DNA of 45,479 nt from a virus: IMG/VR virus record IMGVR_UViG_3300045988_175963. One strand, given 5' to 3'. A program made the translations under genes and the position numbers. Positions 34,125 to 35,733 of this stretch are shown here, piece by piece. The notes below the pieces were generated by a model. That model was not told the DNA's origin, did not search any database, and saw nothing but the letters and a program-made list of their open reading frames with translations. How positions within the stretch are numbered: position 1 is the stretch's first letter; each line of letters opens with the position of its first letter.

Positions 34125-35733
34125 GTGAAGAGGTTAGGTAACATTTCACAGGCGGTTGAGACTTTGCAAAATTTTCGTGAAGCATTTTTTGATTTTTCGA
34201 GGCACAAGAAGTCCCGTCTCTCAGTACAAGCGTTTGAGGCAGAGTTTGAAACAAATCTTCAAGCCCTGCTAAATGCATATGTTCATCAGACATGGCATAC
34301 ATCAGACTATGAGGCCAAGCTGGTTGAAAAACCCAAGCATCGCATAGTCAATAAGTTGCCTGTTGGCGATCATGTCATTCAGCATGCAGCCATGCACACC
34401 AGTGAAGATAAGTTGAGAGCCAAGATTCCTTTCAACAGTCCAGCTGGTACCAAGGGGCGTGGCACGCATTTCTTCTACAAGATTATCAAGCAGGACATCT
34501 ATACCTCGCCACAGCAAGACACATTCTATTGCTTGCCCATGGATATACATCATTATTTTCAGAATGTTGAGCATAATCTGCTCAAGAGAGAGTACAGGCT
34601 GTATATCAAGGACCGCAAGCTACTTGCTTTCATCGACGAGGTCGTTGACAGCTATGCCAATGGCATAGTGCTGGGCGTCAAGCTTACACAACTTTTGGGA
34701 CAACTGTTTCTGGCGAGGTTTGACTATCTCGCCATGCGGTGTTTCGACATACTCCAAGACCCCGAGAAACACGGCTACTGGCAGGCTCGGTACGTCACAG
34801 ACATGCTCCTCACATGCCGCTCGGAGCAGCAAGCTATCGTTTTAAATGTGGGGGGGGGTAAAATCCCTCAATGAGCGCTTCGACCGTTTTTGCCGCGAAG
34901 GGCTCAAACATTATTATAGATTCATGGACAATATCTTCATCATGCATGAAGATAAGGTCTTCTTACGCCTCATAGCGGAGCTTGCAGTCATGCACTTGGC
35001 AAGAGACTGGAAGCTGAGCATTAATAAAAGTTGGAATATTCATCGTACATGTGACGGCATAGACTTCTGTGGACAGAAGATCTTTGCCGACCATGCCCTT
35101 TTGCGCAAGCGCACCAAGCAGGCACTCTGTGCCCAGGTTGCAAGATTGCGCAAACGTGGTCTTACCGATGAGCAAATCCGGCACAAGGCAGCATCCAGGC
35201 TAGGCCTAGCCAAACACGCAGATACAAAAAACTTATTAAATAAAATCGGTATGAAAAAGTATGGTCAGATTGTGAAGGCTCGCAAGGGAGAGATACCCTT
35301 CGAGGGCATGAGCATGGCACAGAAGAAGCATCCAGGCGATATCCTGTGCCACAACATTGAGGACTATGACAAGTTCCTCATCCTCATAGAGGATTACAAG
35401 ATTGATAAGTCGAGAGTCGACTTCAAGATGGAGCAGGTTGAAGAAGTTGACGACCAGGGCGTCAAGCACATAGTCACCAAGAAGGTGCCAAAGGACCGCC
35501 TCGCCATCCGCTTCCGTTTCATCGATCACGTCCGGAAGACAGGACAACTCGATGAACATGGCGATGAGATTGAGGAACCGGTTTGGCAAACTGAGTCGTG
35601 GTGGCTCTTTACTGGCTCAGATATTTTGGTTGACCAGGCACGCAAGGAGTGGAAACTGCTGGACAAGGGCTTCTACACCGTTGCAGCCGAGCTAACCAAC
35701 AAGTTTGGCAAGAAATTTTATAAGTTTATCTAG
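34125..35733 (+). CDS. DGR reverse transcriptase, reading frame interrupted at a G9 tract (fragments 34125-34874 and 34846-35733)
   Basis: Motifs KPKHRIVNKLPVGDHVIQHA, SPAGTKGRGTH, CLPMDIHHYFQNV and LGVKLTQ lie in fragment 1. YYRFMDNIF and GIDFCGQKI lie in fragment 2, in the +1 frame. Confidence 0.85.
34850..34858 (+). repeat. G9 homopolymer at the RT frame break
   Basis: Nine consecutive G. Deleting one G fuses the two RT fragments into a single 535-codon ORF. Confidence 0.95.

Follow-up and report, generated by a model that had tools for sequence, protein, structure and literature searches.

A G run interrupts the reverse transcriptase gene of an active diversity-generating retroelement in gut phages and may restrain it through slippage

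Described systems and the present locus

Diversity-generating retroelements (DGRs) are the only systems known in nature that target proteins for hypermutation. Their density is highest in the human gut, and the limits on their activity are little understood. We analyzed a DGR in a 45,479-nt stretch of phage DNA (IMG/VR record IMGVR_UViG_3300045988_175963, referred to as the window in its full length), in which the gene of the reverse transcriptase (RT) changes reading frame at a run of nine G residues (G9). In close relatives, the run most often counts seven G (G7), which also breaks the frame, and yet the element is active.

The DGR of Bordetella phage BPP-1 provides the best match to the core fold of this RT (bRT; PDB 8ub7). 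Both elements are phage-borne, both are arranged in the order target gene with variable repeat (VR), template repeat (TR), and RT, and both display adenine-specific mutagenesis. The RT described here differs from bRT by its length (~535 vs. 328 amino acids [aa]), by the frame change at the G run, by an FMDN instead of a YMDD motif, and by the addition of a helical insertion of ~50 aa and of a C-terminal beta domain of ~150 aa; moreover, no avd gene was recognized. Phage-borne DGRs from the same niche are also known in gut Bacteroidales phages (hankyphage p00, crAss-like phages), but their RTs are distant relatives (24–28% identity over ~70–80% of the RT in tblastn searches), which are annotated as single open reading frames (ORFs) and for which the papers searched report no G-tract break. 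Likewise, a nonexhaustive search of the DGR literature, including the text of large DGR surveys, retrieved no mention of a frameshifted, homopolymer-interrupted, or phase-variable RT.

Other described loci resemble the interruption itself. In the sortase-dependent pilus genes of the gut commensal Bifidobacterium breve, a conserved G tract also lies between two ORFs that have to be joined, and the reference sequence is out of frame. These tracts are G10–G12, their DNA-level variation by replication slippage was demonstrated by deep sequencing, and they control a surface structure (PMC9187656), whereas here the tract is G7 (range G6–G9), the gene encodes a phage mutator enzyme, and the evidence favors activity without DNA-level switching. 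Intragenic poly-G with recurrent length changes is also found in poly-G/C phase-variable genes (type III mod “phasevarions”, Neisseria lgt); in the present case, however, the ON state is seen in only ~4% of consensus genomes, function persists in the OFF state, and the gene encodes a DGR RT rather than a surface or modification function. Finally, the sites of −1 frameshifting or transcriptional slippage (A AAA AAG in dnaX, A-runs of insertion sequence [IS] elements; PMC5009743) are similar to the G7 alleles in their heptamer and stop codon in frame 0. As in these systems, the clade conserves the site, purifying selection acts on both ORFs, and the shifted product corresponds to the in-frame homolog. 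In contrast to them, the run is made only of G and is polymorphic in length, no conserved stimulatory structure was found, +1 alleles (G9, G6) also appear active, and the case is known from sequence alone.

Activity of the retroelement in frame-broken genomes

Direct reading of the window confirmed the arrangement reported in the original prediction. Frame 0 reads ...EQQAIVLNVGGGKIPQ (VLNVGGGKIPQ) up to its TGA stop, whereas the +1 frame runs on as ...GGVKSLNERFDRF...YYRFMDNIFI... to 35733, with (M)WGGVKSLNERF at the junction; the two frames cross in the G9 run at 34850–34858, and removing one G yields a single ORF of 535 codons (34125–35733). As also predicted, G9 is the longest G run in the window, and indeed its only G/C run above 7; the next longest (G7 at 2077–2083) lies in frame within a small ORF and is unrelated to the RT break. 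Given that ~0.1–0.2 G/C runs of at least 9 are expected by chance in 45 kb from base composition, the presence of G9 is not in itself very improbable, and its significance comes from comparative data rather than from the rarity of the run.

We gathered relatives from IMG/VR, species-representative genomes, and metagenome assemblies, as well as by an IMG/VR DNA-pattern scan and exact-protein look-ups. All are assembled consensus sequences, counts were taken among the matches listed in each locus search (80 per search), and many IMG/VR contigs carry a single dataset identifier (3300045988), with a sample independence that is partly uncertain. A near-identity DNA search of the phage collection with the window gave no match. 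The first relative identified by tblastn, the human-faecal phage scaffold MT835875 (~62% identical), has an RT broken at the same aligned site by G8. Two clades carry the G run. In clade A, which is ~96–97% identical to the window and comprises 85 unique RT sequences after de-duplication, the tract is G7 in 69 sequences, G9 in 6, G6 in 5, G8 in 3, and G5 in 1, and one further G8 sequence is placed in the G7 frame class by an extra GT. The pattern scan, which is independent of protein score, returned G7 65 times, G6 and G9 6 times each, and G8 3 times among the matches listed. The in-frame lengths being G8 or G5, ~96% of clade A is frame-broken (82/85 sequences out of frame) and 81% share G7, in-frame alleles amounting to 3–4 of the 85 unique sequences and to 3 of the 80 matches listed in the pattern scan. 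The window thus carries a minority allele (G9), the common one being G7; G6, G8, and G9 are each found on several haplotypes. In clade B (~62% identical), on the other hand, the run is read in frame as GGG GGG GTN in 22–25 of 29 unique contexts, the exceptions being three interrupted runs (GGGGGAG, GGGGGGA) and one out-of-frame G8. Comparison with related phages therefore establishes the break as the rule in clade A, with a G7 majority and G6, G8, and G9 variants; it is genuine, heritable, and ancestral to this clade. The G5 tract comes from two 3.79-Mb contigs (L086 and L087; SCPP01001554.1 and SCPO01000001.1), where it is in frame and gives the spacing normal for the family (NVGVKS); either this allele is real and ancestral-like, or the homopolymer was undercalled in long reads.

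A sequencing or assembly error had been put forward as one possible cause of the break. It is ruled out by the finding of the exact G9 in at least 10 independent samples and by the 82 of 85 relatives that are out of frame. In the assembly collection, 56 blocks are indexed with the exact 249-aa N-terminal fragment of the window, and the contigs fetched with it, which come from different studies, samples, and assemblers, all have G9 (10/10); throughout the locus, VR included, two of these contigs (L250 and L255) do not differ from the window. The cultured isolate MSK.21.95, whose assembly has a 197x coverage, carries G7. A systematic undercalling of a true G8 is not credible either, because the clade B run, which has the same G7 length, is consistently assembled in frame.

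The element is a bona fide DGR, with a TR/VR pair showing differences of the adenine-only type and an adjacent DGR-type RT. It has neither the canonical YxDD motif, which is replaced by FMDN, nor a recognizable gene for the accessory protein Avd at the DGR locus; these features are typical of DGRs without being strictly defining, and DGR activity is evident regardless. In 42 clade A loci, 487 of 490 VR/TR mismatches are located at TR adenines. In the window, this is the case for 14 of 15 mismatches, the last one being at a TR thymine (TR 33846 T, VR 33452 A) and found again in L250 and L255, whose locus is identical to that of the window. In three pairs with G7 (L043/L045, L069/L070, and L030/L034), the two genomes are the same over 7,406 nt outside the VR but show 14–15 differences inside. 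Similarly, three G9 genomes (L252, L253, and L256) differ by 0–1 nt outside the VR and at 11–16 positions inside, and the near-identical L251 and L254 likewise have G9. Tract length is uniform within every isogenic group, which points to repeated mutagenic homing without visible passage through an in-frame length. The DGR is thus active in both G7 and G9 backgrounds.

Both halves of the gene are constrained. Ratios of nonsynonymous to synonymous substitutions (dN/dS; Nei–Gojobori, pairwise approximations on G7 sequences only) are 0.070 for the N-terminal part (proportion of synonymous differences, pS, 0.18) and 0.070 for the C-terminal part (pS 0.13), whereas, for the C part, reading the nucleotides in the two remaining frames results in ratios of 2.3–2.9 and 13–22 stop codons. 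These values indicate that, for as long as the clade has been diversifying, translation of the C part has taken place in its own frame, under a constraint equal to that on the N part. Apart from the tract, both halves are intact in 81 of the 85 unique clade A sequences, the extra lesions being a nonsense codon (L004), a 1-nt deletion (L122), a 3-nt deletion (L117), and an 81-nt deletion (L132). A pseudogene, the outcome that the original prediction associated with inactivating mutations accumulated across relatives, is ruled out by a dN/dS of 0.07 in both halves and by the presence of another lesion in only 4/85 sequences.

A broader form of this explanation invokes either a recently dead gene or a homopolymer miscall, VR diversity then deriving from an in-frame ancestor or being supplied in trans, for example by a co-resident clade B prophage. 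Homopolymers are indeed error-prone, as the G5 from the two 3.79-Mb contigs may illustrate, the lesions of L004, L122, and L132 are real, several contigs have an IS at the tract, and clade B phages, which have an intact RT, share the same host species. However, the same tract length was assembled repeatedly in independent samples, and a dN/dS of 0.07 in the C part over a synonymous divergence of 0.13 cannot be explained in this way. The VRs, moreover, differ between genomes that are identical elsewhere, which, like the constraint on the C part, argues against trans-complementation. We regard this explanation as largely refuted and most improbable.

One observation on these lesions is worth reporting separately. 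L004 (IMGVR_UViG_3300023545_000018), which has one of only three G8 alleles, carries its premature stop at codon 199 of the C part. Such a stop would be expected if constitutive RT expression were counter-selected, although this is a single case.

Frame restoration on the G run

How could an out-of-frame gene provide an active RT? We give an even chance to the possibility that the full-length enzyme is made at a low level because the frame is restored on the G run when the gene is expressed. In the G7 alleles, frame 0 reads AAU GUG GGG GGG UAA, with a phased X XXY YYZ heptamer (G GGG GGG) right before the stop codon. A −1 slip of the Gly-tRNA(s), either in tandem or in the P site only, would re-pair perfectly and go on with GUA AAA UCC, and the resulting ...NVGGVKSL... 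would be the product of the in-frame G8 allele. On the G9 of the window, a +1 slip from GGG to GGG would lead to ...NVGGVKSL..., and on G6, a +1 slip would lead to ...NVGVKSL..., which has the 13-residue spacing usual in the family. RNA-polymerase slippage on the run could contribute in both the G7 and G9 alleles. At the DNA level, the tract is hypermutable as well, G6, G8, and G9 variants continuing to arise while G7 persists. The likely effect is that the RT, and hence mutagenic retrohoming, would be held low, possibly in a condition-dependent manner. Slippage may thus occur at the level of translation or of transcription, with throttling as its probable function. That the −1 class (G7) is active as well as the +1 class (G9) is compatible with several routes, namely bidirectional ribosomal slippage, RNA-polymerase slippage, or a contribution in trans from rare in-frame copies of the DNA when replication is multi-copy. 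The more specific proposition that the DGR is throttled by recoding, in a clade of S. copri phages distributed worldwide whose RT is permanently out of frame and made only when slippage (−1 or +1, according to allele) takes place on a poly-G kept by selection, falls slightly short of an even chance.

The site was compared with known frame transitions. A slippery run followed by a stop codon belongs to an established class of frameshift sites (Weiss et al. 1987, as cited in PMC5009743). The phased heptamer of −1 frameshift sites is present in the G7 alleles but not in the G9 of the window, which would need a +1 or −2 shift; the site is conserved, and both ORFs are under purifying selection. The programmed +1 frameshift considered in the original prediction is therefore supported only in part: it would suit the window, but the common G7 allele would require a −1 shift, with a stop directly after the slippery heptamer. 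We also applied to the clade A RT the criteria proposed for conserved frame transitions in prokaryotes (PMC3711429). The conservation of the site is a feature of programmed frameshifting and a homopolymer of at least 7 nt is a feature of phase variation; no pseudogene feature was observed, and the start of the second ORF is not within 10 nt of the stop of the first one, unlike in translational coupling.

The tract is hypermutable and, at the same time, maintained by selection. In a neighbor-joining tree of 83 unique sequences, the 14 non-G7 sequences are all separate tips whose nearest neighbor is G7, and Fitch parsimony gives a minimum of 14 changes of tract length. As read from this tree, in-frame G8 revertants arise repeatedly and do not spread, whereas G7 persists. 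Interrupted tracts are absent from 120 clade A contexts, compared with 3 of 26 in the in-frame clade B (p ~0.01 by our own hypergeometric estimate). GGG represents only 5.1% of the Gly codons in the long ORFs of the window, and of 33 Gly-Gly pairs, only the one at the tract is encoded by an in-frame GGG-GGG. The 12 codons around it show no synonymous polymorphism, which places them among the lowest ~5% of gene windows, two other places being equally invariant. In clade B, subclades with diverged flanking codons still keep G7 (e.g., L009–L021, L082–L083, and L094–L111).

A rival explanation is pure DNA-level phase variation, in which slipped-strand mispairing at replication would toggle the gene between OFF (G6, G7, G9) and ON (G8, G5) lengths, the RT being made by ON genomes only; a rare ON copy could also diversify the VRs of OFF copies in the same cell during multi-copy replication. 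The intragenic homopolymer reaches at least 7 nt and has undergone at least 14 independent length changes among the 83 unique sequences, on several haplotypes. Moreover, the tract is kept pure, clade B retains G7 in spite of the rarity of GGG, as would be expected if mutability were selected, and there is a precedent in the intragenic G tracts that join two ORFs in Bifidobacterium pilus genes (PMC9187656). On the other hand, ON lengths account for only ~4% of consensus sequences and are no more common than G9, and VRs diversify within uniform G7 or G9 isogenic groups that have no G8 member and no switching between OFF lengths. A G7 run is also short for high-rate phase switching. The ON/OFF contingency locus envisaged in the original prediction is thus borne out as regards length, which does differ between close relatives, but not as regards ON and OFF states that would both be common, with function only in ON. 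We consider phase variation rather unlikely, at about half the likelihood of recoding at the expression level. Recoding is favored because ON alleles are so rare, because VRs turn over within isogenic groups whose OFF length stays the same, and because the ancestral G7 state has persisted even though in-frame revertants recur. The rarity of ON alleles and the diversification of VRs in uniform OFF groups likewise argue for a leaky frame restoration rather than a clean ON/OFF switch.

Another explanation for activity in G7 and G9 backgrounds alike is that the RT works as a split enzyme, the N fragment of 244–249 aa assembling with a C fragment started at ATG 34814 (G7) or 34846 (G9/G6), so that tract length would be irrelevant. 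A correct-frame ATG does exist shortly upstream of the tract in both out-of-frame classes, and the break is predicted to lie in a surface loop of the helical insertion between motifs B and C. However, a neutral tract should gather interruptions, in contrast to the 0/120 observed and to the absence of synonymous change in the flanking codons. In two of the 85 unique sequences, both G7 and including the isolate MSK.21.95, a TGA comes right after ATG 34814. Direct reading further shows that ATG 34846 is not in the C-part frame in the AAATAT haplotype, which, with G6, has no in-frame start near the tract. A split enzyme would also predict G8 to be as common as G6 or G9, whereas it is the rarest, and the other family members (36–73% identical, 512–550 aa) are all single polypeptides. 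We therefore find a split RT improbable.

Several points nevertheless weigh against frame restoration on the run. No convincing stimulatory RNA structure was found upstream or downstream of the tract. The downstream hairpin at 34873–34905 (−17.2 kcal/mol, z = −1.66) is matched by 12 of 200 shuffles, and its pairs are broken in several common haplotypes with no compensatory changes; the weak z-score and the lack of covariation speak against it as a frameshift stimulator. The upstream region folds no better than shuffles (z 0.07), and no hairpin that could act in transcriptional slippage was found there. Only one candidate stimulator is conserved, namely the stop codon that immediately follows the run in G7. 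At the shift site of the G9 allele, there is neither a stop codon nor a known pause codon, so that an efficient +1 ribosomal shift is not obviously favored there. Clade B also retains G7 despite the rarity of GGG codons, a hint that the tract may be selected for a role independent of frame restoration, for instance mutability as such. Finally, consensus sequences do not distinguish slippage by the ribosome, by RNA polymerase, or by DNA polymerase, some length variants confined to single tips could be assembly errors, and the contigs of dataset 3300045988 may not all be independent.

The reverse transcriptase, its locus, and implications

Among solved structures, the best sequence match of the fused RT is the Bordetella DGR RT (8ub7_A, E-value 7e-14). 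In this alignment, FMDN is opposite YMDD and GIDFCGQKIFADHALLRK (GIDFCGQKI) is opposite GINFLGYRIWPTHKLLRK (GINFLGYRI). The N-terminal part contains the fingers/palm motifs 1–4 and the family-specific helical insertion. The C-terminal part contains motif C (FMDN), motifs 6–7, and the thumb, in agreement with the late RT motifs predicted in the downstream fragment, as well as the beta-rich C-terminal domain of ~150 aa. For structure comparison, we turned to P0001, the in-frame relative that is closest (73% identical). Its AlphaFold model (predicted local distance difference test [pLDDT] 89) again has 8ub7 as its best structural match (Foldseek E-value 4e-19, template modeling [TM] score 0.90 relative to bRT). 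No Pfam-A match was obtained with the fused RT or with the target protein of the window (RVT_1 does not score); several RT homologs carry a precomputed PF00078.

Motif C is F-x-D-N (window 34920–34931) and not Y-x-D-D; in 44 homologs, its D is invariant and its N is conserved in at least 90%. An RT of the FMDN type is thus found together with textbook adenine mutagenesis. The insertion of ~50 aa, which is all-helical and absent from bRT, lies after the motif B helix and before the hairpin of motif C (~34700–34900, residues ~195–255). It holds a second, retron-like pseudo-motif C (RYVTDMLLT), which aligns with RYADDMLFS of retron Eco8. Beyond the bRT-like core, the beta-rich domain spans window positions ~35280–35733. 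In the P0001 model, the Gly-Gly of the tract maps to a short loop between two helices of the insertion, ahead of the motif C hairpin, where the gain or loss of one Gly should be tolerated. The other members of the RT family are encoded by single ORFs. At the position of the tract, the nearest ones (P0001 and P0002) read ...LTSVQSLNERF with no G run (ACT AGC GTT), and P0003 has TGT GTG GGA GTG AAA.

The phage infects Segatella (Prevotella) copri, and its DGR locus (table 1) lies between tail-fiber-like genes and lysis and tape-measure genes. The target gene product is probably a tail fiber or receptor-binding protein. No tRNA gene was found in the window, where a phage-encoded tRNA-Gly was sought. 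Directly after the RT gene, a conserved ORF of 129–131 aa (window 35734–36123) is present in every fetched locus in which the downstream gene was examined, that is, in clade A, clade B, P0001, and P0003. It could encode an accessory factor; a Pfam search with its 129-aa product gave no match.

Table 1. Positions of the DGR features in the window
Feature	Position	Strand	Remarks
DGR target gene	32141..33565	+	474 aa; VR in C-terminus; relatives keep gene order
Variable repeat (VR)	33393..33511	+	3′ end of target gene; 41 distinct VRs in 42 relatives
Template repeat (TR)	33787..33905	+	119 nt; 9 TR variants among 42 relatives
RT N-terminal part	34125..34874	+	Frame 0, 249 codons, GTG start, TGA stop at 34872–34874
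ATG	34814..34816	+	In C-part frame when tract is G7; start of the 305-aa C fragments called in databases
ATG	34846..34848	+	In C-part frame in the G9/G6 class; possible independent start of a separate C fragment
G9 tract	34850..34858	+	Crossing point of both RT frames; Gly-Gly of a loop; T on both flanks
RT C-terminal part	34859..35733	+	+1 frame relative to 34125; listed ORF begins at ATG 34846
Candidate hairpin GAGCGCTTCG-13 nt-CGAAGGGCTC	34873..34905	+	3′ of tract; frameshift-stimulator role unsupported

The tract is also a site of IS insertion. In at least eight independent contigs (L116 1–510, L028, L129, L144–L147, and L155), an IS end (...AAAACGGCCGTTCTCGGACGGGCT) immediately precedes GGGGGGG, and the transposase ORF (L116 59–301; P0072) matches the Pfam domain DDE_Tnp_1_6. 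The IS ends are not the same in all contigs, suggesting that insertion occurred repeatedly at this position, and four more contigs (L052, L065, L078, and L128) start exactly at the tract. The G run may thus be a preferred IS target. Contigs that break or turn foreign at the tract were also considered as a sign of length heterogeneity within samples, an interpretation that we rejected as they are IS junctions; the left junction was not recovered from the fetched loci.

Gene callers split the RT into fragments of 244/249 aa and 295/305 aa, which are left unannotated or called “hypothetical protein.” These fragments are found in two database clusters (those of P0007 and P0008) of 5,417 and 3,004 members, the larger of which also holds full-length forms of 535 aa. 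DGR surveys that demand an intact RT are therefore likely to miss this lineage or to score its RT as defective.

These data reveal a natural, abundant, and evolutionarily stable lineage, a widespread clade of gut S. copri phages, in which the RT gene is split between two frames and yet functional. The case suggests an inherent throttle or switch in the form of recoding or slippage. If this is true, the level of hypermutation would be set at decoding, where it would perhaps be tuned by translation or termination status. This would represent a previously undescribed layer of DGR control, as well as a rare all-G recoding site working in a Bacteroidota host. Cultured lysogens (e.g., S. copri MSK.21.95) and natural G5, G6, G7, G8, and G9 alleles exist for testing this directly.

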